From a virus: DNA of 64,000 bases. Below, one piece after another: positions 8,975-27,940 of this stretch. The notes beneath the pieces are model-generated. The model was given only the letters and a program-made list of their open reading frames with translations, ran no database searches and had not been told where the DNA came from. The stretch is taken from IMG/VR virus record IMGVR_UViG_3300045988_155139. One strand, given 5' to 3'. Every line of letters begins with the position of its first letter. Position 1 is the stretch's first letter. Made by a program: the position numbers and the translations under genes.

Positions 8975-9186
8975 TGTTATCAGTTCTAACTTTTATAATT
9001 GGATTTTTATTAGGTATGACTTGTGAAGCAAAATGGAAAGGTTATATACAAGAAAAAGTCTGGAAAGAGATGAATGAATTAGCTGAAAATATGAACAAAT
9101 TAGGTAAGTCCATGATAACATCTCAAATGATAATAACAAAAAGTTTGGAGGAAAAGAAAAATGAGAATAATAATCGAAGGAGTTGA
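8974..9186 (+). CDS. small membrane protein
   Basis: 70 aa with N-terminal hydrophobic helix. Confidence 0.45.
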   Translation: MLSVLTFIIGFLLGMTCEAKWKGYIQEKVWKEMNELAENMNKLGKSMITSQMIITKSLEEKKNENNNRRS

Positions 9187-9703
9187 CAAATCTGGAAAAT
9201 CTACAATCATTGAAAATATGAAAAATAGATTTGAATATGGAATAGCTATTAAAAATATGATAAAACCAAGAGATAATTCACCCGAAGAGACTAAAAGAAT
9301 TTGTGAAATCTATGAAGATATTGAGATAATGTCACAAAATATAGACCCCAATCACGTTTTCATATTGGATAGGTATTACCAGTCAGAAATTGTTTATTCT
9401 ATTTTACGTGGAAATGACCGATTAGTTGACCCTAACTTTAAAAATTGGGTAAGAGATATGGAAAGTGCAATAAGACATAACACACTGTTGGTTTTACTTG
9501 AAACTGATGCAGAAATTGTTGCTGATAGATTTAAAAAATGCAATGAAGATTTTGTCAAAGAGGACCAAATTAAAATGTTACAAGAAAGATATAATAAAGT
9601 CTTTGAGATGAGCACATTGCCAAAAATAAAACTTGATACTACCAAATTAGGTATTGAGAAATCATTAGAACTTATAGAAAAAGAAGTTCAAAAATTAAGA
9701 TAG
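9161..9703 (+). CDS. dNMP kinase (thymidylate kinase family)
   Basis: P-loop IEGVDKSGKSTI typical of Tmk-like kinases; 180 aa. Confidence 0.6.
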   Translation: MRIIIEGVDKSGKSTIIENMKNRFEYGIAIKNMIKPRDNSPEETKRICEIYEDIEIMSQNIDPNHVFILDRYYQSEIVYSILRGNDRLVDPNFKNWVRDMESAIRHNTLLVLLETDAEIVADRFKKCNEDFVKEDQIKMLQERYNKVFEMSTLPKIKLDTTKLGIEKSLELIEKEVQKLR

Positions 9704-9772
9704 GAGGAGATTATTACGAATATTTTAGACTATGAAGCAGATGAATTTAACAAAGAAACATGGCTTAGTGAC

Positions 9773-10354
9773 ATGTATGAGAGACAATATAAGGTTTATG
9801 AGAAATATAAAGAGATTGAAGGTATGCCAAAAGAATTTAAAAGCATACAAACTAGAGAAACTCAAAAATGGATGAAAGACTTTATAAACAGAATAAACGA
9901 AGAAGTAGCAGAAAGTTATGAAAGTATCAGAAACCCTGAGACTTCAGTTATCATTAAAGATGAACAAGGAAATGAATTCGATGTTCATAGGTCAGAAGAA
10001 TTGGCTGACGCATTACATTTCTATTTGGAATTACTTATAATCACTGGACATGACGCTGAATGGTTAAAAGAAAAATATTCTCATTATGAGAAAAAAGTAT
10101 ATAGTGATTTCATAGAATTAAATTATTGGGAAGTTAGCTATCAACTTGGAATGTTAGGTAATTGCTTAAAACTAAAACCTTGGAAACAAGATGAAGTTTT
10201 AACTGACCTAAACAAAGTAGATGACCAATTAACAAATGTCTTCTATTCATTATTAAATTGCTTTGCAGCTAATGGAAATACTGAGGAAGACATATATAGC
10301 TTATATACTCGTAAGAATAAAGTAAATAGGTTTAGACAAAATTCTGGTTATTAG
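9773..10354 (+). CDS. MazG-like nucleoside triphosphate pyrophosphohydrolase
   Basis: EEVAESYE ... EELADALHFYLEL acidic helix pair characteristic of all-alpha NTP-PPase (MazG/dCTPase) fold. Confidence 0.5.
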   Translation: MYERQYKVYEKYKEIEGMPKEFKSIQTRETQKWMKDFINRINEEVAESYESIRNPETSVIIKDEQGNEFDVHRSEELADALHFYLELLIITGHDAEWLKEKYSHYEKKVYSDFIELNYWEVSYQLGMLGNCLKLKPWKQDEVLTDLNKVDDQLTNVFYSLLNCFAANGNTEEDIYSLYTRKNKVNRFRQNSGY

Positions 10355-10366
10355 GAGGTAAAGATT

Positions 10367-10555
10367 ATGAAAATTAGAACATTCTGGGCACTTTATAATG
10401 CTGTTTTAGACGAGGAAGTTAACCAATTCTTAAGTAAAATAAAACCAGAGAATGTCTTAGATTTAAAATATTCTACTTCTTCTGATAATACTAGAAACAC
10501 AACGGTTTTCTCAGTAGCAATACTTTATGAGGAGGAAAAAGATGGCGAGATTTAA
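10367..10555 (+). CDS. hypothetical protein
   Basis: 62 aa ORF with RBS. Confidence 0.45.
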   Translation: MKIRTFWALYNAVLDEEVNQFLSKIKPENVLDLKYSTSSDNTRNTTVFSVAILYEEEKDGEI

Positions 10556-10802
10556 TGTTATAATTACCATTCTGATTACAATTTTAGAATTCACTATCGC
10601 TATATTCGACATATTGAGAGGAAAAATCTTTTGGGCTATAATCTTTGCAATAATTGGAATACTATATATAATCTATATGGTACCTTTAAGTTGGAGAAAC
10701 TATAAAAGAGATGTGAGATTGAAGAAAGAATGGAAAGAAATTCAAGAAAGAATAGATAAAGAATGGGGGAAATTTCAAGATGAGGATATATCAAAATTGT
10801 AA
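10542..10802 (+). CDS. small membrane protein (2 TM)
   Basis: ATG 10542 after GAGGAGG RBS; two hydrophobic helices. Confidence 0.5.
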   Translation: MARFNVIITILITILEFTIAIFDILRGKIFWAIIFAIIGILYIIYMVPLSWRNYKRDVRLKKEWKEIQERIDKEWGKFQDEDISKL

Positions 10803-11469
10803 AGAAATGATGTCAGAGGTTCATAGAGACCTACAAGAAATGGGTATAATCAAACATACAAAAACTGTTCAAGATAAAAACATCGAAGGTTTAGATGATT
10901 ATACCACAAAAGAATTAGTTGGTTATAGTTATTCAATATTAGATTTTAGTGATAAAGACCAAATGATTTTGGACAATGGTCTATCACTTGACTGGTGTCG
11001 TGCTGAGTTTGCAGAAAGGATTTGTCCAGATGAAGTAAATCCTGGTGAGGCTTATAAACTAAGACCAGTTTGGGACGAATTTGTACATGATGGAAAATTT
11101 AGTTACACATACAATGAAAGAATTAGAACACAATTAGAAAAAACAATGGATGTTTTAAAGAATGACCCTAACTCACGTCAGGCTATCATAGAGATATATA
11201 ATTCTACATTAGATAGCGACAATAGAGGTGGAGTAAAGAGAATTCCTTGCTCAATGTATTACCAATTTATTACAGACCAAAATGGAAAGTTAGACATCAT
11301 CTATAACATCAGAAGTAATGACTTTGGAGAACATTACCCATATGACATATGGATGGCTATCACATTATTACAATATGTAGCTGAGAATTTGGAGATGAAA
11401 GTTGGAAAACTAATCTACTTCTGTGGAAGTTTACATTGTTTTAAAAAGGACCTTCCAACAACATTCTAA
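10780..11469 (+). CDS. thymidylate synthase (ThyA) family enzyme, possible dNMP hydroxymethylase
   Basis: RIPCSMYYQF (catalytic Cys context) and NIRSNDFGEHYPYDIWMAITLL matching the ThyA Q-R-S-x-D...P-F-N-I...LL block; short (229 aa), like phage hydroxymethylases. Confidence 0.55.
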   Translation: MRIYQNCKEMMSEVHRDLQEMGIIKHTKTVQDKNIEGLDDYTTKELVGYSYSILDFSDKDQMILDNGLSLDWCRAEFAERICPDEVNPGEAYKLRPVWDEFVHDGKFSYTYNERIRTQLEKTMDVLKNDPNSRQAIIEIYNSTLDSDNRGGVKRIPCSMYYQFITDQNGKLDIIYNIRSNDFGEHYPYDIWMAITLLQYVAENLEMKVGKLIYFCGSLHCFKKDLPTTF

Positions 11470-17511: not shown

Positions 17512-17688
17512 AAATATTATTTGAGACCTATCAATTTGAGCTCAGGCTGGGTCAATTTTAATTTTTATATTTAAACTAAGGTAATTTATTATCTATTAAA
17601 TCTAACTGCTTTAAAATTTAAAATAATTACAATCAGAGGTAGTTAACATAATAAAATCTTGTACGACGTGAGGAAAGGAGGAAATAAA

Positions 17689-18951
17689 TTGATACAAAGA
17701 CTAAGTGAGATATTTCTATCTGTGTATTGGAAAATGCACTTGCCTGGATTTAATTGCTCTAGAAGGTATCTTAGAGGAGGTAGATATTCTGGTAAAAGTG
17801 TTGAGACAGCAAGAAGCATTATTACTGGAATGTTAGAAGACCCAACTAAGACAAAGTCAGCTATCGCCTTTAGAAAATTTGGTAATACATTACAAAGCTC
17901 AGTATTTAATGAGTTTGTAAATGCTATATATGATTTAGGAGTAGAGTCAGAATTTGAGATGGTCTATTCACCATTACAGATTAGAAGAAAAGGAACCAGA
18001 CAAGTTATACAATTTGCAATGTTAAATCAACCAGACGACTTCAGAAAAATAAAATCTATAAAACTGATAAAATCATATTTTGCTTATATTTGGTTTGAAG
18101 AAGCAGATGAGTTCACAGACCCTAAAGCTATTCGTCAAGTATTGCTATCACTATTCAGAAATGGAAATAATTTCGTAGTTTATTTTACATTTAATACTCC
18201 ATTTAGCCCTGAGCACCATCTTAATGTTGAGTGGGGAACAAGAAAGAATTGTTATTACCAGCATACAACTGTTTATGATTTACCAAAAGAAATAATTAGC
18301 GATGAGATATGGGAAGAAATAAATGACATGAAAGAACATAGACCCAAGGAGTTTGCACATACTATAATGGGAGAACCAGGAGACCCAGATGCTATAGTCT
18401 ATCCAAATGTTTATAGATATACTTATGACCCAGACGGAGAGCATAAGTATTTTGATAATATTTTGAGAGGACTGGATTTTGGTTATGCACCTGACCCAAC
18501 AGCATATGTAGACATGTATTATGATAAGACTCACAATGACTTATATATTTTAAATGAGATGTATGATTACAGATTAAAATCTCAAGAAATATATGACAGA
18601 GTAGTTAAAGTATGGCATAGTTATGGTCCAGTAACATGTGAAATTGACAAACGTGTTATCGACGAATTAACAGATGCTGGTTTATATACCATAGAAGCAA
18701 AGAAAGGACCAAATTCAAGAGAATTAGGAACTAAGTGGTTTCAAGAACTTAATCATATTTATATTGACCCAGCAAGATGTCCTAATGCTTGGAGAGAATT
18801 CACAACTGCTGAATATGCAAGAGACAAATATGGTAATGTGACAACTAAACTTCCAGATGGTAATGACCACATAAGAGATGCTGCAAGATATGCTACTGAG
18901 GATTATTGGAACCATACAAATATGAGAATATCAGATAGGAGGTTATTCTAA
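17689..18951 (+). CDS. terminase large subunit
   Basis: Walker A RRYLRGGRYSGKS (PBSX/Terminase_3-like), nuclease-domain acidic residues; TTG start 17689 seven nt after AGGAAAGGAGG (track begins at in-frame TTG 17659). Confidence 0.75.
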   Translation: MIQRLSEIFLSVYWKMHLPGFNCSRRYLRGGRYSGKSVETARSIITGMLEDPTKTKSAIAFRKFGNTLQSSVFNEFVNAIYDLGVESEFEMVYSPLQIRRKGTRQVIQFAMLNQPDDFRKIKSIKLIKSYFAYIWFEEADEFTDPKAIRQVLLSLFRNGNNFVVYFTFNTPFSPEHHLNVEWGTRKNCYYQHTTVYDLPKEIISDEIWEEINDMKEHRPKEFAHTIMGEPGDPDAIVYPNVYRYTYDPDGEHKYFDNILRGLDFGYAPDPTAYVDMYYDKTHNDLYILNEMYDYRLKSQEIYDRVVKVWHSYGPVTCEIDKRVIDELTDAGLYTIEAKKGPNSRELGTKWFQELNHIYIDPARCPNAWREFTTAEYARDKYGNVTTKLPDGNDHIRDAARYATEDYWNHTNMRISDRRLF

Positions 18952-19802: not shown

Positions 19803-21347
19803 ATGATTATTATCTATGATGATTTTGACAAAATTAACAAGAACGACTTATTTGACCAGGTAGACGCAGTCTTAAGTAAAAGACAAAGACTTTGGGAAAG
19901 ATATTCTCGTGGAATTAGTTTTGAAGACGATGGTCAAAAAGACAACAAAGATAAATTGGAAATATTATTTGAGAAATTCATTGTTGATACAGCAACAGGG
20001 TATTTATCAGGACCCATCACATATGACGTAGATGTTTCGAGTGAAGTAGAAAAGAAAATTGGTAAAACTATTTTTGGTCGTGAGGGTGTCGATGAGACAA
20101 TGGCTGATGAGCTAAGATATGTTATAAATACATTAGCCTCAGATAATGATGACGCAGTAGAAGAAACTTTATTATTAAGACAAGCACTTTTATATGGTAG
20201 TACATATGAGAGAGTTTGGGAAAATCAGTTTAACAAATTACAATATCTAAACTTAGATGCACTAAATACTGTAGCTATTTGGAATAATGCTATTGACCCA
20301 GAAGTAGTAGCTGTTGTCTCAGCATTTGAGACCAAAGAAGACACATTAACAAAATATTGGTACAGAGTATATTTATCTAATCAAACTATAGTATACTCAA
20401 GAGAAAATAGAACTGAAATAAATGTCAATGCTGAGAGGTCATTAAAATTGGAAGAAAAGAAGGACCATAATTGGGGTCAAGTTCCAGTTATTGTTTATGA
20501 GTCTGATTTTAGTATTATTGACAAATGTGCTTCACTTATTACAGCATATCAGGATTTATTAAATAATGTTAGAAATACGTATCAGTATAATGACACTGAT
20601 TGTAAGATGAAAATTGTTGGGTATCGTGCTCAAAATCCGATTATGATACCTAATCCAAAGAAAGGACAACCAAACCAACCAGACATGATACTAAATCCAG
20701 CAAGACAACAAGAAGATGACTATGTTTTATCTGGTAAAACATTCTATGTTGAGCAAGGTGGAGATGCCGATTGGTTGACTAAACCAGTTAATGCCAATGA
20801 AGTAACAACAATGCTTAAATATTATGTTGACAGTATCTTCCAAATGACTGGTATTCCTAATACTTCAGATTTAGCATTTAATTCGACTGACCTAAACGCT
20901 TCAGCCATTGACCGTAAATTCTATGTAATGAGTATCACAACTGCAGATATTAGAGAGGGAATTCAAGATTTAATTAGAAAGAGATTTAAAATGTTATTGG
21001 ACCGTATCAATTTCAAATTTAATACAAAATATACAATGGACAATGTTACAATAAATATGAGTACTAACTTGCCATCAATGACAGATGAGAACATTGACCA
21101 AATGATGAAATTAAATGGAATTCTATCTCAAGAAACTGTAGTTGAGAAATTGGGTTATGACTGGGAGACAGAGAAGAAGAGAAAGGAGGACGAAGTAAAT
21201 GCAGCAATGGAACAAGTTACAAACAGAATTAACCAAAATGATGAAGAAAATGGAGACGAGGAAGAAGGAACAAATCCAGGAGATAATGACACCGACCAAG
21301 AAGACGGAGGAACTGACAAACAAGTACCAGAGGAAAGTAACGAGTAA
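19803..21347 (+). CDS. portal protein
   Basis: 514 aa, follows the terminase region, acidic C-terminal tail; size and position typical of portal proteins. Confidence 0.65.
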   Translation: MIIIYDDFDKINKNDLFDQVDAVLSKRQRLWERYSRGISFEDDGQKDNKDKLEILFEKFIVDTATGYLSGPITYDVDVSSEVEKKIGKTIFGREGVDETMADELRYVINTLASDNDDAVEETLLLRQALLYGSTYERVWENQFNKLQYLNLDALNTVAIWNNAIDPEVVAVVSAFETKEDTLTKYWYRVYLSNQTIVYSRENRTEINVNAERSLKLEEKKDHNWGQVPVIVYESDFSIIDKCASLITAYQDLLNNVRNTYQYNDTDCKMKIVGYRAQNPIMIPNPKKGQPNQPDMILNPARQQEDDYVLSGKTFYVEQGGDADWLTKPVNANEVTTMLKYYVDSIFQMTGIPNTSDLAFNSTDLNASAIDRKFYVMSITTADIREGIQDLIRKRFKMLLDRINFKFNTKYTMDNVTINMSTNLPSMTDENIDQMMKLNGILSQETVVEKLGYDWETEKKRKEDEVNAAMEQVTNRINQNDEENGDEEEGTNPGDNDTDQEDGGTDKQVPEESNE

Positions 21348-21360
21348 ATTTGGTATCACA

Positions 21361-22167
21361 ATGAAAGTCAAAAATCAAAAACAATTCGATGAGTTAAGGG
21401 CTTTGGCTCTTCTCACCGAAGTTATTGACGAAAATGAAATTAAATCATTTTATGAGAAAGTAGCTAAAGACTATTATCCACCTAATCCTGTGCTTGCTCC
21501 ATTCCAAGATGGTGTGGCTGATACTGTTTCACATCGTATGAAGAATTTTAGTTTTTATGAGCAAGACATGTGGGATATTTGGTATATGTATACATTTGCT
21601 AATGTTATGAATTATGCTTCAAATAAAGAGAACCTAAATTATGGTAATGTTTTAAATAATACATTAGGACAATCACTTAAGAAAATGACCAGAGTATTTT
21701 TCAATAGAGCAGTTACTTTGGTTAGAGAGCAAATGGTAGCATTACAAGAAAAAGTACTTGAAGAGAAACCATCAGAGGAAGTAGAAACTGATGATGGCTG
21801 GTTCAAACAATATTTACATATTAACTTTATGTGGAAAACAATGGAAGATGAGAAAGTTTGTGAAGTGTGTGGACCATTAGAAGGACAAATGCTAATTGAC
21901 ATTCCTGAAGTTATGCCCCATTATAACTGTAGATGTAGCTTTGTAGTATTTGAATGGTGGACAGATGAGGATGGCAATGTTATAGCAGATAGACAATATG
22001 ATATTGAGCAAAATAAACAATATAAGGGAAAAGGTTTATCCGTTAAGCGTGCAAGAATTACTTCTCGAAAATTAGAAGGTGGTGAACAAGTAACTATCTT
22101 CGAAGTTGATGATGAGGAAGAAGAGGGAAAAACTAAAAAGATAACATGGACCGAACCTAAAGAATAA
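21361..22167 (+). CDS. head morphogenesis protein (SPP1 gp7 / Mu F-like)
   Basis: Directly after the portal; CEVCGPLEG...CRC metal-binding motifs; ATG 21361 (track ORF extends spuriously upstream into the portal). Confidence 0.5.
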   Translation: MKVKNQKQFDELRALALLTEVIDENEIKSFYEKVAKDYYPPNPVLAPFQDGVADTVSHRMKNFSFYEQDMWDIWYMYTFANVMNYASNKENLNYGNVLNNTLGQSLKKMTRVFFNRAVTLVREQMVALQEKVLEEKPSEEVETDDGWFKQYLHINFMWKTMEDEKVCEVCGPLEGQMLIDIPEVMPHYNCRCSFVVFEWWTDEDGNVIADRQYDIEQNKQYKGKGLSVKRARITSRKLEGGEQVTIFEVDDEEEEGKTKKITWTEPKE

Positions 22168-22181
22168 TTTCGGGAGATGAT

Positions 22182-22688
22182 GTGATGAAAAACAAAGCAG
22201 CACGTAAAGCATTAGAGAGTAGATATGGTAAAGGGTGTATGTTCACCAAAGCACATTGTGAAGAGAGAATAGAAGCTCTCAGAACTATCAAAACTTTTAA
22301 AATGTACAAAGAAGAAAAGAGATATACTGGAAGAAAAATAAAAGAGTTAGCTAAACAAATGACATATCATCATTTAAAACACAGAAGCGAAGGTGGAAAG
22401 ACCAATTTGGACAATGGCTCAGTTGTGAATGGATTGGCTCATGCTTATATGCACTCACTGCCAAGAGAGCATGAGGAGATAGTTAATAATATGATTAGAG
22501 AATATAAAATGGGTATAGCTATTATTGGAAATGGTGAAGTTACTCAGACTCAATCTTTGGAGTTAGATTTCAATATTGACTTAGATGATTGTATAACAAT
22601 TCCTTTGGAGAAAGATAATGCTAGATACAATCGTGCTAGAGTTAAGAGAGAAACTCAGAGAATGATAGATGAGGAGTTAGAATTATAA
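22182..22688 (+). CDS. HNH endonuclease
   Basis: YHHLKHRSEGGKTNLDNGSV HNH core. Confidence 0.6.
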   Translation: MMKNKAARKALESRYGKGCMFTKAHCEERIEALRTIKTFKMYKEEKRYTGRKIKELAKQMTYHHLKHRSEGGKTNLDNGSVVNGLAHAYMHSLPREHEEIVNNMIREYKMGIAIIGNGEVTQTQSLELDFNIDLDDCITIPLEKDNARYNRARVKRETQRMIDEELEL

Positions 22689-22705
22689 TTTGGAAAAGTT
22701 ATGGC

Positions 22706-22741
22706 TATTCTGTTTACTTTTTACATGGGTTCTGATATAAT
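22706..22741 (+). promoter_or_regulatory. conserved phage promoter variant upstream of the tRNA cluster
   Basis: CTGTTTACT -35, 17 nt spacer, TGATATAAT 22733-22741. Confidence 0.45.
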
Positions 22742-22990
22742 AAAATCGAAGAAAACAAAATAAGCTTGTCGAGGGTTATATCTTGTTAGTTCTTCAGGTT
22801 TTTCAAAAATCTATTGCTGGTGGTTCTCCAGACTTGACTACAATAAAAGTAGTTAGTGTCCACACCCGAAAGGGAAAATGAGCTGGACTGCTTCCTATAT
22901 AGGTTGTCAATATGTAAGAACGCTAATAAACGTGTAGTGAATTGATGTAAAAAGATACAGTAATAGCGGTAGCTTCTTTTTCCTATATAT

Positions 22991-23071
22991 CCTGCCAAGA
23001 AGGTTCGAGATTTATTGACTATCGCTCCTGACGGTCAATAGATTTTCCAGGTTCAATTCCTGGTGGCAGGC
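22991..23071 (+). tRNA. tRNA-like element (possible tRNA-Arg CCT, atypical arms)
   Basis: perfect 7-bp acceptor CCTGCCA/TGGCAGG, T-arm CCAGG-TTCAATT-CCTGG, anticodon-like loop CTCCTGA; D and variable regions over-long. Confidence 0.3.
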
Positions 23072-23189
23072 ATAAGAAACACATCCTTTCTGTTGGAAAA
23101 GGAAGAACGAAGAACCGGGGTTTGCTGGACTGGAGTGGAGATGTCCCACTCGTTCCTCGTTATGCTATTGCAAAAGTTCAGCCATATTA

Positions 23190-23261
23190 GGCGGGAAGCG
23201 ATGGCCGCAAACTAGGTTCATACCCTAGTCGGTGATGGTTCGAATCCATCTCCCGCAACCA
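23190..23261 (+). tRNA. tRNA-Met (CAT), short D-arm
   Basis: anticodon arm CTAGG-TTCATAC-CCTAG, T-arm GATGG-TTCGAAT-CCATC, acceptor 3' TCCCGCA-A-CCA (encoded CCA). Confidence 0.5.
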
Positions 23262-23348
23262 GAGGCTCAGGTAGCTCCTGAGATTGGTAGAGTATAAAGA
23301 CGAGGCACCTCTACTCAGTGAAAACAATAAAACCTCGTACATATAAAT

Positions 23349-23433
23349 GGGGTTATAACTCAATGGGTAGAGTCGGGGTAGCTACATTCCAAAACCAGGA
23401 CCAGGAATACCGGTTCGAGTCCGGTTGACCCTA
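23349..23433 (+). tRNA. tRNA-like element, anticodon unresolved
   Basis: acceptor GGGGTTA/TGACCCT (two G-U), D-arm ACTC-AATGGGTA-GAGT, T-arm ACCGG-TTCGAGT-CCGGT; anticodon arm does not fold canonically (84 nt). Confidence 0.3.
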
Positions 23434-23443
23434 TTTATTTTTT

Positions 23444-23520
23444 GCTCGCTTAGCTCAGTTGGCCAGAGCATCGCACTTGTAATGCGAGGGTCCTCGGTTC
23501 AAATCCGAGAGTGAGCTCCA
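23444..23520 (+). tRNA. tRNA-Thr (TGT)
   Basis: acceptor GCTCGCT, D-arm GCTC-AGTTGGCCAG-AGC, anticodon arm TCGCA-CTTGTAA-TGCGA, T-arm CTCGG-TTCAAAT-CCGAG, 3' TCCA. Confidence 0.8.
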
Positions 23521-23523
23521 TAT

Positions 23524-23599
23524 GCTCTGTTAGCCAAGATGGTTAAGGCCCCAGTCTGCAAAACTGGTATCACTGGTTCAAATCCAGTACAGAGCTCCA
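23524..23599 (+). tRNA. tRNA-Cys (GCA)
   Basis: acceptor GCTCTGT/ACAGAGC, anticodon arm CCAGT-CTGCAAA-ACTGG, T-arm ACTGG-TTCAAAT-CCAGT, TCCA. Confidence 0.8.
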
Positions 23600-23710
23600 A
23601 ATTTTGGCTGGGTTAACCTGCGAATGTCAGAGTATTGTGTGCACAGAGAAATGACTTCAAAAGTAGAAGAGCACTCGAGGAATGGTTATAGAAGCCGCCC
23701 GGCCCCACAC

Positions 23711-23784
23711 TTCCGGATGGTGAAATGGTATCACATTAGGCCTTGGACCTAATATTCCTAGTTCGAGTCTAGGTCCGGAAACCA
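23711..23784 (+). tRNA. tRNA-Gln (TTG)
   Basis: acceptor TTCCGGA/TCCGGAA, anticodon arm TTAGG-CCTTGGA-CCTAA, T-arm CCTAG-TTCGAGT-CTAGG, ACCA. Confidence 0.8.
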
Positions 23785-23793
23785 TTTTTGAAT

Positions 23794-23867
23794 GCTCCAA
23801 TGGTGTAATGGTAGCACAACAGTCTCCAAAACTGTTTGTTGAGGTTCAAGTCCTTATTGGAGTGCCA
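23794..23867 (+). tRNA. tRNA-Trp (CCA)
   Basis: acceptor GCTCCAA/TTGGAGT, anticodon arm ACAGT-CTCCAAA-ACTGT, T-arm TGAGG-TTCAAGT-CCTTA, GCCA. Confidence 0.75.
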
Positions 23868-23870
23868 TAT

Positions 23871-23958
23871 GGGCAGGTAGCCCCGTAAGGAGCGGGTCCA
23901 GACTGTAAATCTGGCGTACTTTGTACCCGAGTGGGTTCGATACCCTCTCTGCCCACCA
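23871..23958 (+). tRNA. tRNA-Tyr (GTA), class II
   Basis: acceptor GGGCAGG/TCTGCCC, anticodon arm CCAGA-CTGTAAA-TCTGG, long variable arm, T-arm GTGGG-TTCGATA-CCCTC, ACCA. Confidence 0.7.
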
Positions 23959-23965
23959 TTTATTT

Positions 23966-24050
23966 GCCGTGTGTCCGGGTGGTGAGGAAGCAGTCTTGAA
24001 AATTGTTGGCCTGAAAGGGCTTGCAGGTTCGAATCCTGTGCACGGCGCCA
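23966..24050 (+). tRNA. tRNA-Ser (TGA), class II
   Basis: acceptor GCCGTGT/GCACGGC, anticodon loop CTTGAAA, long variable arm GGCCTGAAAGGGC, T-arm GCAGG-TTCGAAT-CCTGT, GCCA. Confidence 0.65.
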
Positions 24051-24079
24051 TTTAAAATTAAAAGAAAAGAGGTGAAATC

Positions 24080-25051
24080 ATGGTACATATTCTAACACAT
24101 AACGACTTAGATGGCTATGCTGCTGGTTATATCGTATCAAAATATTTTCATCATAAAAGAAAAAGTATAACATTTCTCAACTATGATAAAGAACCCGTTA
24201 TTGAAAATTATCAAGAAGGAGACATTGTTGTTATTACTGATTATTCATTGAGTAATGACCAATATGAACAAATTCTTGAGAGAATTGGAGATGACGGGCA
24301 TTTAATTTGGTGCGACCATCATAAAACTGCCATCGACAGATACAATCAAAGTGATGTATGCTGTGAAGGAATTCGTAGTACAAAATATTGTGGAGCAGTA
24401 TTAGCTTATTTATATTTTGAGACAGCAGTCGATACTGAAGAAGTAGAGGAGTGGACCTATGAGAAAATCATGGAAGAAATTCCAGAATGGTTGAGATATG
24501 TTGACGCTTGGGACACTTGGAAATTAGACAGTGAATATAGAAAAGGGGCAGAAAGACTAAATCTTGCTGTGTCCAACATCTTGAGTGAAACTCTTATGGC
24601 TGATATTTCCAAAGATGTTCACAACTATATCAAAATTGGTAGATATTATGAAGCATACAGAAATCAGTGGGCAAAGACATTCCGAGATAATTACATGTTC
24701 CATAAAACTCTAAGTGGTAAATTATTTGGAACTGATAGAGATGTCAAAGCTTGTATCTTGACTCTCGGAAATGCTAATAGCGAATTCTTTGGAGATGAGA
24801 TAGATAAATCTGATGTTTGTATCACTCAATGTTTTAATGGTGAGAAATGGAAAGTTAGTGTATATTCTAATAAGCCAGATATTGACTGTGGTCTATATTG
24901 CCAAACATTTGGGGGTGGAGGACATAAAGGAGCAGCCGGATGTTATTTCGAACAAATCAATCCACCAGGTTTTATATGTGAAGACATTGAGATTTTAAGG
25001 AAAGAATTATATAATATGAATGTGACTAAAAATAATGAAAGTCACAAATAA
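24080..25051 (+). CDS. DHH/DHHA1-family phosphoesterase (NrnA/RecJ-like)
   Basis: NDLDG (motif I), ITDYS (motif II), CDHHKT (DHH motif III), GGGGHKGAAG (DHHA1 GGGH); 323 aa. Confidence 0.65.
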   Translation: MVHILTHNDLDGYAAGYIVSKYFHHKRKSITFLNYDKEPVIENYQEGDIVVITDYSLSNDQYEQILERIGDDGHLIWCDHHKTAIDRYNQSDVCCEGIRSTKYCGAVLAYLYFETAVDTEEVEEWTYEKIMEEIPEWLRYVDAWDTWKLDSEYRKGAERLNLAVSNILSETLMADISKDVHNYIKIGRYYEAYRNQWAKTFRDNYMFHKTLSGKLFGTDRDVKACILTLGNANSEFFGDEIDKSDVCITQCFNGEKWKVSVYSNKPDIDCGLYCQTFGGGGHKGAAGCYFEQINPPGFICEDIEILRKELYNMNVTKNNESHK

Positions 25052-25074: not shown

Positions 25075-25647
25075 ATGGATGGTGAAGAAATGACTTTTGA
25101 TGAAATTTTACAAGACCCAAAATATCAAGCAGAATTTGATAAGAGGGTACAAAAAGCTTTAGAGAAATCTAATGCGGCTAAGGAAGAGGAATGGAAAAAG
25201 AGAGAAGCAGAATTAGCTAATAGAGAAGATGAAATCCGAAAAAATATTTTAGAAGAGATGGAAGCTAAACAAAAAGAAGCTGAAGAAAATGCTAAGTTGA
25301 CTGAAGCTGAAAAATATAAAAAAGAAATGGACAAATTAGCTCAATCTAATCTAGAAATGAAAAATCAATTAGCTATCATCAATCGTGAAAAGAAAATGAG
25401 AGCTTATATCAAAGATAAAGGTTATGATGCAGAAGCTATATTGGAATTTGTTAAACCAGAACATGTTACTGACACTAACTATGCAGATGAGATAGATAAA
25501 ACAAATACATTGTTTAGTGAAAGAGTTTCTAAGGGGGTTAATGACAAATTAAAAGAAGACCCAGATGTTTTACTTGGAAACAAAGGTAAAAAAGAAGGAC
25601 CAGAATTTAATTTTGGATTTACTCCAATCAAACCTGTAGAAAAATAA
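25075..25647 (+). CDS. coiled-coil protein, possible scaffolding protein
   Basis: 190 aa, highly charged K/E heptads, near head genes. Confidence 0.4.
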   Translation: MDGEEMTFDEILQDPKYQAEFDKRVQKALEKSNAAKEEEWKKREAELANREDEIRKNILEEMEAKQKEAEENAKLTEAEKYKKEMDKLAQSNLEMKNQLAIINREKKMRAYIKDKGYDAEAILEFVKPEHVTDTNYADEIDKTNTLFSERVSKGVNDKLKEDPDVLLGNKGKKEGPEFNFGFTPIKPVEK

Positions 25648-26558: not shown

Positions 26559-26591
26559 TGTAAGTAATATAGTGTAGAGGAGGTGAGAAAT

Positions 26592-26798
26592 ATGTCTAAC
26601 AAAGTATATGATGTATTGAAATGGATAGCCTTAATAGTTCTTCCTGCTATTGCTACACTATATTTTGCAGTTGCTCAAATATGGGGACTACCTTATGGCG
26701 AAGAAGTAGTTGGAACTATTACAGCTGTCGACGCATTTTTAGGAGCTTTACTAGGAGTTTCTAATGCAACCTACGGAAAATATGGAGGTGAAGAGTAA
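26592..26798 (+). CDS. holin (phi-LC3/LL-H-like)
   Basis: 68 aa, one or two TM helices (WIALIVLPAIATLYFAVAQIWGL), charged C-terminus, immediately upstream of the endolysin. Confidence 0.6.
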   Translation: MSNKVYDVLKWIALIVLPAIATLYFAVAQIWGLPYGEEVVGTITAVDAFLGALLGVSNATYGKYGGEE

Positions 26799-26857: not shown

Positions 26858-27940
26858 ATGATGGCAAAAAGAGGAATAGACATTTCTGCTCATCAGGGTG
26901 ACATTGATTTAGCTACTCTAAAATCACAAATTGATTTTGTAATAATTAGAGTTGGTTATGGTACACAGGGAACAATTGATACTAAATTCAAAAGAAATGC
27001 TGACCTATGTGTTAGTTTAGGAATTCCTTTTGGATTTTATTGGTATTCCTATGCCTTAGATGTAGCTGGAGCAAGAAGAGAAGCAGAAGCATTTTTAAAT
27101 GCTATTGACCCATACAAAGACAAATATTCATATGGATGTTGGTTTGACATGGAGGATGCTGATGGTTATAAGTCAAGAAACGGTATGCCTTCTAACCAAA
27201 CATTAAGAGAAATCTGTGCTATGTTTTGTAGAATAGTTGAAGAAAGTGGATATTATGTTGGAGTATATGCTTCAGAAAGTTGGTTTAAAAACCAATTAAA
27301 TGGAAGTGAATTAACTCCATATGACAAATGGGTAGCACAATGGCCAACCAGTGGAGGTCAACAAACAGCCTTAAATACTAGTGCTGATAAGAGAAGCGAT
27401 ATTCACTTATGGCAATTTACATCTGCTGGAAGATTTAGTGGATATAATGGAAATCTTGATACAAACTATGCTTATGTCGATTTTCCAGGCTTAATTGGAA
27501 ATGTAAATAGTTCGACAGAAACATCTACATCTACTCCAACCACCAATTCCCCATCTGGCACTACTTTAGATTTAGCATACAGAGTAATGCTTAAAGAATT
27601 CGGTGATGGTGAAGCTAGAAAAACTGCTTTGGGAGATAGATATAATGAAGTACAGGATTTTATAAATCATATTGCTTCTGCAGATGCTAATACTTTAGCT
27701 CAAGAAGTTAAAGCTGGTAAATACGGAAACAACCCAGTTAGAGAAACTGTTTTGGGTGATAGATACCAAAAAGTACAAGACATTGTCAATGGTACTCAAA
27801 GTAGATATTATACTGTAGTTTCTGGAGATACTCTGTCAGGGATAGGTCAAAAGCTTGGAGTTAATTGGAAGACTATTGCTAGTTTAAATGGTATCAGTTC
27901 TCCTTATACAATCTATCCTGGACAAAAATTAAAATACTAA
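26858..27940 (+). CDS. endolysin: GH25 muramidase with C-terminal LysM domain
   Basis: N-terminal GIDISAHQGDID...FVIIRVGYG...GFYWYSY (GH25 lysozyme); C-terminal YTVVSGDTLSGIGQKLGVNWKTIASLNGIS (LysM). Confidence 0.8.
   Translation: MMAKRGIDISAHQGDIDLATLKSQIDFVIIRVGYGTQGTIDTKFKRNADLCVSLGIPFGFYWYSYALDVAGARREAEAFLNAIDPYKDKYSYGCWFDMEDADGYKSRNGMPSNQTLREICAMFCRIVEESGYYVGVYASESWFKNQLNGSELTPYDKWVAQWPTSGGQQTALNTSADKRSDIHLWQFTSAGRFSGYNGNLDTNYAYVDFPGLIGNVNSSTETSTSTPTTNSPSGTTLDLAYRVMLKEFGDGEARKTALGDRYNEVQDFINHIASADANTLAQEVKAGKYGNNPVRETVLGDRYQKVQDIVNGTQSRYYTVVSGDTLSGIGQKLGVNWKTIASLNGISSPYTIYPGQKLKY

Follow-up and report, generated by a model that had tools for sequence, protein, structure and literature searches.

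A predicted NrnB-like DHH/DHHA1 phosphodiesterase encoded downstream of a phage tRNA cluster

Results

The virus record IMGVR_UViG_3300045988_155139 was analysed as one stretch of 64,000 nucleotides (nt), referred to here as the window, in which all genes lie on the plus strand. The subject of this study is an open reading frame (ORF) called on the window at 24080..25051 (+), which starts with ATG and encodes a protein of 323 amino acids (aa). It begins 29 nt past a tRNA-Ser gene, carries the Shine-Dalgarno-like sequence AGAGGTGA just 5′ of its start and ends 23 nt short of the next gene. An earlier note, made from the letters of the DNA, had called this ORF a DHH/DHHA1 phosphoesterase of nanoRNase length, and the call was confirmed: the ORF is exactly as described there, all four DHH motifs and the GGGH motif are present, a two-domain fold was modelled, and the protein is an intact, stand-alone enzyme of nanoRNase size. 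PHROG 4771 ('DHH phosphoesterase') matches residues 2-292 with an E value of 7e-26 and, together with the structure model, the fold matches and an identical protein (P0001), identifies 24080..25051 (+) as a complete gene for a stand-alone DHH/DHHA1 phosphodiesterase, most likely of an NrnB-like viral clade. The Pfam models PF01368 (DHH; 25.2 bits versus a gathering threshold of 28.1) and PF02272 (DHHA1; 18.6 versus 25.9) gave real matches, but both stayed below threshold and would by themselves leave the assignment borderline. The sequence is divergent, and it is placed in the DHH/DHHA1 superfamily on the strength of its motifs, its fold and the match to PHROG 4771. When the window protein was searched against GenBank phages, neither the near-DNA search nor tblastn returned a match at E 1e-5.

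The DHH catalytic domain (residues ~1-150; 24080..24529 (+)), delimited by its motifs, by alignment and by hhalign to NrnB clade B, carries motif I (H7-N-D9-L-D11-G), motif II (VVITD54YS), motif III (W-C-D79-H80-H81) and motif IV (D-A-W-D145-T-W), as read from the translation. It is followed by a helical inter-domain linker (residues ~151-205; 24530..24694 (+)), which according to the secondary structure of the model includes a helix of 36 residues (170-205). Such a long linker, here helical and ~55 residues in length between motif IV and the DHHA1 domain, has been proposed to discriminate NrnB from NrnA (PMC10570053). The DHHA1 substrate-binding domain (residues ~206-292; 24695..24955 (+)), assigned from motifs and profile alignments, contains the strand S260-V-Y262-S263 and the motif GGGGH282K, and an acidic C-terminal tail of 31 aa (24956..25048 (+)) completes the protein. 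An AlphaFold model built with 76 homologues showed a two-lobed DHH-linker-DHHA1 fold with a mean predicted local distance difference test (pLDDT) value of 92.5; over residues 301-323 of the tail pLDDT is ~50.

The metal-binding motif residues are invariant in the homologue alignment A1, and relatives show GGGGH unchanged as well. When the family was clustered at 80% identity, the catalytic residues were found to be kept in 112-118 of 119 clusters. Since every catalytic residue is thus retained in at least 94% of the clusters, the family members are predicted to be active enzymes under selection, and the window protein is predicted to be a catalytically competent two-metal (Mn2+/Mg2+) phosphodiesterase.

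The substrate strand of the DHHA1 domain deviates from the canonical form. In place of S-x-R-S the window protein has S260-V-Y262-S263, in which the Ser is kept and the Arg is replaced. The DHHA1-only profile places Y262 opposite the Arg of DhhP (VGLRS), Rv2837c (VSMRA) and M. smegmatis NrnA, and the full family profile places it opposite the Arg of 6mtz (VSLRA). Tyr occupies this position in 86 of the 119 clusters, Phe in 14 and Arg in 16, so that 100 of them carry Tyr or Phe. In D. radiodurans RecJ, Ser371 and Arg373 together with Arg109 build the pocket for the terminal 5′-phosphate that sets the 5′-3′ polarity, and the R373A exchange lowers catalytic efficiency about tenfold; CDC45 lacks this pocket, and its absence has been linked to the opposite polarity (PMC4846377). 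NrnA carries an R-x-R-x-R motif in the same region of DHHA1 (PMC9757072). With respect to the Ser-x-Arg pocket of RecJ motif VI, the phage protein has thus retained the Ser and exchanged the Arg for Tyr. The exchange was also considered as a marker of viral versus cellular members and rejected, as Tyr dominates in both sets; because viral and cellular members are not separated by it, the Arg or Tyr state appears from the alignments to be a trait of the subfamily.

A second distinctive feature is the short C-terminus. In NrnB, a conserved basic C-terminal extension of >100 aa is diagnostic for activity on long RNA, and clades without it favour 2-4-mers (PMC12709177). The window protein has 41 aa after GGGH, which are acidic (isoelectric point 5.6), and no basic extension of >100 aa of the NrnB clade A type; in the family the median tail is 18 aa long, and only one of 161 members exceeds 100 aa.

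For subfamily placement, the family profile was ranked against the sequences in the PDB. The best match was H. pylori 6mtz (E 1.5e-8), which is also the best fold match named outside the viral structure library, followed by M. jannaschii RecJ2 (4e-8), Borrelia DhhP (5.5e-7) and then other archaeal RecJs. NrnA, Rv2837c and Pde2 reached only ~1e-3 (7e-4 to 2e-3), and this with the DHHA1 part only. The N-terminal domain of 6mtz was rebuilt from the printed alignment and then used as a search query. The sequence family recovered in this way contains an 'H. pylori 3′,5′-cyclic-nucleotide phosphodiesterase' (a 100% identical fragment), a 'C. jejuni 3′-to-5′ oligoribonuclease B' (47% identity) and proteins labelled COG2404 NrnB by the Joint Genome Institute (JGI). 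Because of these names and the COG2404 label, PDB 6mtz, which was deposited as an 'uncharacterized protein from H. pylori G27', appears from its sequence family to be the clade-B H. pylori NrnB of PMC12709177. Alignment of the phage family to NrnB clade B by hhalign gave a probability of 98% and an E value of 2.3e-13 at 19% identity over residues 3-153, that is, over the DHH domain only, and both groups share the non-catalytic signatures H-x-D-L-D-G-Y, N-Y, DHH-x-S and D-x-W. The features by which NrnB proteins were selected in PMC12709177, namely COG2404, a DHH domain and GGGH, are all found here, COG2404 by the JGI label. The protein is thus most likely NrnB-like and a member of a sister clade to NrnB clades A-C, as judged from a sequence comparison with clade B.

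Of the assignment offered by the earlier note, the nanoRNase size and organisation therefore stand, and the NrnA or pAp phosphatase type probably does not: the nearest proteins are NrnB/COG2404 (6mtz) and archaeal RecJ2/RecJ-Cdc45, NrnA chains are matched only at E ~1e-3, and the strand Arg of NrnA and RecJ is a Tyr here. The alternative of a small RecJ-like nuclease acting on recombination intermediates, which the note had also named, fared poorly as well, given the missing OB-fold, 35 bits against a RecJ cutoff of 360, and a phage that already has its own Sak4, SSB and PD-(D/E)XK exonuclease.

Comparison with known systems further delimits the clade. The phage protein resembles NrnB (H. pylori 6mtz of clade B and B. 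subtilis YngD of clade A) in its stand-alone DHH and DHHA1 domains, the long helical linker and GGGH, and it resembles clades B and C in lacking a long C-terminal extension. It differs in that identity is only ~16-19%, in that the strand reads S-V-Y-S versus S-L-R-A in 6mtz, and in that it is encoded by a phage. Annotated viral DHH proteins (PhiEaH1, RP12, PaBG, AR9 'NrnB', Vibrio phage H20 'DHH family protein', Klosneuvirus and Marseillevirus) have the same fold and size but are only 16-21% identical to the window protein. Archaeal RecJ2, RecJ-Cdc45 and GAN have 430-470 aa, with extra inserted and C-terminal domains and with contacts to the replisome, and the phage protein has neither of these. 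NrnA, Pde2, CnpB (Rv2837c), DhhP and TM1595 share the size of ~320 aa and the two-lobed fold, and their DHHA1 domains align with E values of 1e-10 to 1e-6, but NrnA, Rv2837c and DhhP keep an Arg-rich substrate strand (R-x-R-x-R; VSMRA/VGLRS) where the phage protein has Tyr. NrnA acts in the 5′-3′ direction, and CnpB and Pde2 cleave c-di-AMP.

Three further assignments were tried and rejected. Bacterial RecJ is excluded by the two-domain architecture without OB-fold and C-terminal domains; the NCBIfam RecJ models scored 35 and 26 bits versus cutoffs of 360 and 550 and covered the N-terminal 115 residues only. A GdpP-type c-di-AMP phosphodiesterase is not compatible with a DHH motif that starts at residue 7 and the lack of N-terminal transmembrane, PAS and degenerate GGDEF domains, and the DHHA1 profile matched a c-di-AMP phosphodiesterase chain only at E 0.002. 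A family II pyrophosphatase or exopolyphosphatase was dismissed as the C-terminal domain is a GGGH DHHA1.

The family is widespread. A word search of a large protein database yielded 169 relatives down to 28% identity. The identical protein P0001 is located on a 66-kb contig and bears the JGI label 'oligoribonuclease NrnB/cAMP/cGMP phosphodiesterase (DHH superfamily)', equivalent to COG2404, and P0032 and P0119 carry the same label, which in each case is the source's own. An exhaustive profile search against 1.84 billion cluster representatives gave 19,775 matches at E <= 1e-3 and 2,956 at E <= 1e-30; the 150 matches listed are nearly all 270-330 aa long and aligned end to end. At least 474 confirmed copies were found on IMG/VR viral contigs of 25 kb to >250 kb, and 113 further copies in genomes or metagenome-assembled genomes of Clostridia, Anaerolineae, Methanobacteria and other groups. 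Among the latter there are ordinary cellular genes, such as one in Anaerolineales amid genes for an M50 peptidase, LysM and TPR proteins and one in Methanobacteriaceae that adjoins RNase III and nitroreductase genes. The best fold matches overall came from the viral structure library (Foldseek E 2e-18 to 1e-12), with proteins of Erwinia phage PhiEaH1, Ralstonia phage RP12, Pseudomonas phage PaBG, Bacillus phage AR9 (labelled NrnB), Klosneuvirus and Marseillevirus. By tblastn, only distant family members, and not the window protein, reach cultured GenBank phages. The family thus spans phages with many different hosts, including jumbo phages, giant viruses of eukaryotes, bacteria and archaea. 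It is already catalogued (PHROG 4771, COG2404) and routinely annotated in phage genomes; neither experimental work on phage DHH/DHHA1 proteins nor an assay of any member of the clade came up in our literature search. As a side observation, the 350-aa protein P0075 from a 1.2-kb metagenome contig begins like a close DHH homologue (N-terminal ~230 residues, 53% identity) and ends with the C-terminal part of the anaerobic ribonucleotide reductase NrdD (PF13597, E 8e-24, residues 204-348). The fusion could have arisen in assembly, as a chimera, or reflect a true rearrangement beside nrdD.

Upstream of the DHH gene, eight tRNA genes for Met, one unassigned amino acid, Thr, Cys, Gln, Trp, Tyr and Ser are located at 23190..24050 (+), of which seven were detected by ARAGORN and one by Rfam. 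The seven ARAGORN tRNAs at 23190-24050 all end in an encoded CCA, and several of the spacers are only 3-10 nt long. The eighth tRNA (23349-23433 (+)) was missed by ARAGORN and scored 41 bits in Rfam versus a gathering threshold of 29; it is 85 nt long with a long insert, which may be an intron or an unusual arm. The relatively GC-rich region of ~500 nt in front of the cluster (22700-23190) contains a T-loop-like GGTTCAATTCC near 23050 and yielded no convincing ORF, tRNA or Rfam match; it could represent degenerate tRNAs or a structured RNA.

In relatives, the DHH gene is directly in front of the scaffold gene wherever the portal is at least 67% identical and the contig is long enough, and it is absent from L177, the portal of which is 50% identical. 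The slot between the minor head gene and the DHH gene carries variable cargo: the HNH-like ORF and eight tRNAs in the window (22168-24079), a 598-aa ORF and two tRNAs in L173 (11421-14067), and an ADP-ribosyltransferase (PF03496, E 3e-17) without any tRNA in L178 (11436-12719). The corresponding slot of L177 (11079-13338), which has no DHH gene, holds a CHAP-domain protein. A tRNA less than 400 nt upstream of the DHH gene was observed only in this close clade (226-310 nt upstream in the relatives of the window phage), in which the number of tRNAs varies from 0 to 8 while the position of the DHH gene is fixed. Across 45 dereplicated viral loci, tRNA density was 0.059/kb within 3.5 kb of the gene versus 0.060/kb at 3.5-8 kb (p = 0.59), and a functional link to tRNAs at the level of the family was accordingly rejected. 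Because the tRNA enrichment is absent across these loci and the tRNAs vary in the close clade, the adjacency pointed out by the earlier note is real but represents lineage synteny only; its position was correct, and the family-wide link that it implied was not borne out. Separately, six cellular loci of Anaerolineae/Chloroflexota (L055, L057, L068, L072, L075 and L080) share a conserved synteny in which a tRNA-SeC called by ARAGORN is followed by an M50 peptidase gene and, 1.3-3.6 kb downstream of the tRNA, by the DHH homologue.

BLAST clustering of the ±8 neighbours in the 119 clusters revealed no conserved partner gene beyond single lineages. One distant member is embedded in a nucleotide-metabolism island comprising nicotinamidase, PRPP synthetase, NAMPT, NAD synthase, ThyA, DHFR, guanylate kinase-NT5C and NrdD/NrdG, and others are located between primase and PolA, upstream of DnaB and PolA, or beside a PC4-like single-stranded DNA binder. 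Genes related to RNA ends were also seen: a distant member lies beside DUF5662 and RNA ligase genes, as in L006 (5641-8936), where both are upstream; DUF5662 adjoins the DHH gene of L170; an RNA ligase gene is upstream in the P0097 lineage; in the crAss-like phage csAssE-Sib (L179, 5139-6933), a gene for a PNK3P 3′-phosphatase extends over the DHH start codon; and in Lachnospiraceae bacterium A4 (L029, 4603-6876), only 16 nt separate the end of a gene for a CCA-adding tRNA nucleotidyltransferase from the DHH gene downstream of it. When 150 neighbours from 38 diverse viral loci were pooled and tallied by Pfam family, SF2 helicases, SSB, DnaB and ligases predominated, and PolyA_pol, RlaP, NYN, PIN and PhoH appeared as single instances.

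In the window itself the DHH gene belongs to a head-assembly region. Genes for the large terminase subunit (17659-18951 (+)), the portal (19803-21347 (+)), a Mu-F-like minor head protein (21199-22167 (+)) and a weakly HNH-like ORF (22182-22688 (+)) precede the tRNA cluster, and the DHH gene is followed by a DUF4355 scaffold gene (25075-25647 (+)) and small ORFs, a Dp-1-type holin gene (26583-26798 (+)) and a gene for an endolysin with GH25, CW_7 and LysM domains (26858-27940 (+)). The lysis genes thus do not close the late region but lie between the scaffold gene and the remaining structural genes. A Gram-positive host is suggested by the domains of the endolysin, whereas the closest genome-contig match, L008, was binned with Gastranaerophilales. 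For recombination and replication the phage encodes a Sak4-like annealase, SSB, a DNA polymerase, a primase-helicase, a second helicase, an ATP-dependent DNA ligase and a PD-(D/E)XK exonuclease. For the metabolism of deoxynucleoside monophosphates (dNMPs) it has a dCMP deaminase, a ThyA-like enzyme, a thymidylate/dNMP kinase and a MazG-like pyrophosphohydrolase (9161-11469 and 58711-59181). No ribonucleotide reductase, flap endonuclease or RNase H was found among the annotated window ORFs, which are a subset of all ORFs, with ~2 kb of the genome outside the window. A combination of ThyA-like enzyme, kinase and MazG is also seen in phages that make modified pyrimidines.

Discussion

By analogy to characterised relatives, we propose that the window protein is a 3′-to-5′ nano-oligonucleotidase that feeds the dNMP salvage of the phage, a function to which we give about an even chance. 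After closure of the DHHA1 lobe onto the DHH lobe via the long helical linker, single-stranded RNA and probably DNA oligonucleotides of ~2-5 nt would be hydrolysed from the 3′ end to nucleoside 5′-monophosphates. The enzyme would thereby carry out the last step in the breakdown of host and phage nucleic-acid fragments and prevent a build-up of di- and oligonucleotides, and its (d)NMP products could be passed on to the dCMP deaminase, the ThyA-like enzyme and the dNMP kinase of the phage.

This proposal is based on the fold and the intact active site, and on the behaviour of the relatives: every NrnB assayed so far works in the 3′-5′ direction and handles 2-4-mers, and none of those tested cuts c-di-AMP (PMC10570053, PMC12709177). 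B. subtilis NrnB shows no activity on pAp or cAMP, and its rate on a DNA 5-mer is similar to that on RNA (PMC10570053). M. jannaschii RecJ2, the second-closest sequence match (E 4e-8), is described as a 3′ exonuclease. The exchange of the 5′-phosphate-pocket Arg for Tyr or Phe in 100 of 119 clusters argues in the same direction, as do the distant members in nucleotide-metabolism or replication modules and the dNMP gene set of the phage, with no ribonucleotide reductase among its annotated ORFs. A preference for short substrates is suggested by the missing C-terminal extension, as in NrnB (PMC12709177). The position of the gene beside tRNAs in the head-assembly module, on the other hand, reflects the genome organisation of the lineage and not a functional link.

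Several points weigh against a salvage enzyme. Identity to any assayed NrnB is only ~16-19%, which makes both the substrate range and the polarity extrapolations. In H. pylori NrnB the Arg is retained, so the Tyr of the phage protein may stand for another substrate altogether and not just for independence of the 5′-phosphate. The gene lies amid late and structural genes, away from the nucleotide-metabolism genes of the phage, and some relatives adjoin genes for RNA-end processing (PNK3P, RNA ligase or a CCA-adding enzyme). Moreover, hosts normally carry nanoRNases of their own.

For the clade with Tyr or Phe in place of Arg as a whole, there is also a reading that dispenses with salvage and that we regard as doubtful. 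The enzymes would then be either dedicated counter-defence enzymes for signals without a free 5′-phosphate, for which cyclic oligoadenylates or SAM-AMP-like conjugates could be examples, or 3′-end trimmers that keep tRNAs usable under tRNA-targeting defences, with phage tRNAs, CCA-adding enzymes, Pnkp and RNA ligase as possible partners. In this reading, expression from the head-assembly operon could even mean that the protein enters the virion and is injected along with the DNA.

In its specific form, we consider it rather unlikely that the window protein is a counter-defence phosphodiesterase which blunts abortive-infection effectors by destroying the nucleotide signal of an immune system (cyclic or linear oligoadenylates in type III CRISPR, cyclic di- or trinucleotides in CBASS, cCMP or cUMP in Pycsar, or SAM-AMP). 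GdpP, Pde2 and CnpB, which cleave c-di-AMP, provide a precedent. In addition, B. fragilis NrN degrades SAM-AMP specifically (PMC10600005), PMC7824862 cites a membrane DHH-DHHA1 nuclease with activity against cA4, and the same role was proposed for jumbo-phage DHH proteins by Iyer et al. 2021 (PMC7824862). The CRISPR-associated NrN belongs to the same superfamily with the same chemistry and demonstrates that specificity for an immune signal is within the reach of small DHH enzymes; a close similarity of the window protein to NrN together with an association with CorA or a type III locus was not found. The Tyr or Phe in the substrate strand could mean a non-canonical substrate, one distant member is next to NAD-salvage genes, and the gene is absent from the relative L177, the portal of which is 50% identical. 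However, cyclic nucleotides are not substrates of the closest assayed enzymes: characterised NrnBs leave c-di-AMP intact, and the B. subtilis enzyme does not cut cAMP (PMC10570053, PMC12709177). A PADLOC scan gave no match, and no known counter-defence family recurred among the 150 pooled neighbours of the 38 viral loci. The folds of the known viral enzymes Acb1 (2H), Apyc1 (metallo-beta-lactamase) and the ring nuclease AcrIII-1 differ from DHH/DHHA1. The proposal of the earlier note that the gene is a candidate new class of anti-defence phosphodiesterase thus found no support, with PADLOC empty, no recurrent counter-defence neighbour and a gene whose position is fixed in close relatives. Nor is the idea new: it is contained in Iyer et al. 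2021 (PMC7824862), and degradation of cA4 and of SAM-AMP is known from DHH enzymes of cells (PMC10600005).

A replication or repair exonuclease akin to archaeal RecJ/GAN, which trims single-stranded DNA or RNA primers and flaps during recombination or at the fork, would agree with the fold match to archaeal RecJ-Cdc45 and with the replication modules around distant members. We regard it as improbable, since the protein is only 323 aa long and lacks OB-fold, CID and C-terminal domains, the RecJ models of NCBIfam score as low as 35 and 26 bits, and the Arg of the 5′-phosphate pocket is absent. Besides, the phage already possesses Sak4, SSB and a PD-(D/E)XK exonuclease, and the gene lies outside its replication module.

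Quite improbable is also a role in the processing or repair of RNA or tRNA 3′ ends, in which the enzyme, as part of a set of tRNA-maintenance functions of the phage, would trim the trailers of 3-10 nt between the CCA-encoding tRNAs, or take off damaged or aberrant 3′ ends and so allow the CCA to be restored. Such a role is suggested by the start of the gene 29 nt after a cluster of eight tRNAs, by the encoded CCA of the seven ARAGORN tRNAs and their spacers of 3-10 nt, and by close relatives with a tRNA 226-310 nt upstream. PNK3P, RNA ligase and CCA-adding enzyme genes next to the DHH gene of some relatives, PolyA_pol, RlaP, NYN and PIN neighbours in viral loci, and the 3′-5′ exoribonuclease activity of NrnB enzymes are also consistent with it. 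Nevertheless, the 45 dereplicated viral loci show no tRNA enrichment (p = 0.59), tRNAs range from 0 to 8 in the close clade while the DHH gene stays fixed, the RNA-repair neighbours were each seen once or twice, and poor activity on long RNA is predicted for a protein without an RNA-binding extension.

Finally, a phosphatase or phosphodiesterase for small molecules (a pAp phosphatase, cAMP/cGMP phosphodiesterase or polyphosphatase) is very improbable, even though the name of COG2404 includes cAMP/cGMP phosphodiesterase, NrnA enzymes act as pAp phosphatases, the annotation of some phage homologues reads exopolyphosphatase and one report credits H. pylori NrnB with cAMP phosphodiesterase activity, because B. 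subtilis NrnB acts on neither pAp nor cAMP and the pyrophosphatases and polyphosphatases of the superfamily carry DHHA2 and not a GGGH DHHA1.

Conclusion

The window gene is an ordinary, divergent member of a catalogued viral enzyme family. New from this analysis are its most likely placement as NrnB-like, the apparent identity of 6mtz with H. pylori NrnB, the clade-wide exchange of Arg for Tyr or Phe, and the finding that tRNA adjacency is not a trait of the family. Stand-alone DHH/DHHA1 enzymes of this clade are among the commoner accessory enzymes of viruses. If viruses carry their own nano-oligonucleotidase, it would supply a missing last step in viral nucleotide scavenging; if one of these enzymes degraded an immune signal, it would add a new fold to the viral anti-signalling set. 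The exchange of Arg for Tyr or Phe offers a concrete way to test what sets polarity and the choice of substrate in the DHH superfamily.

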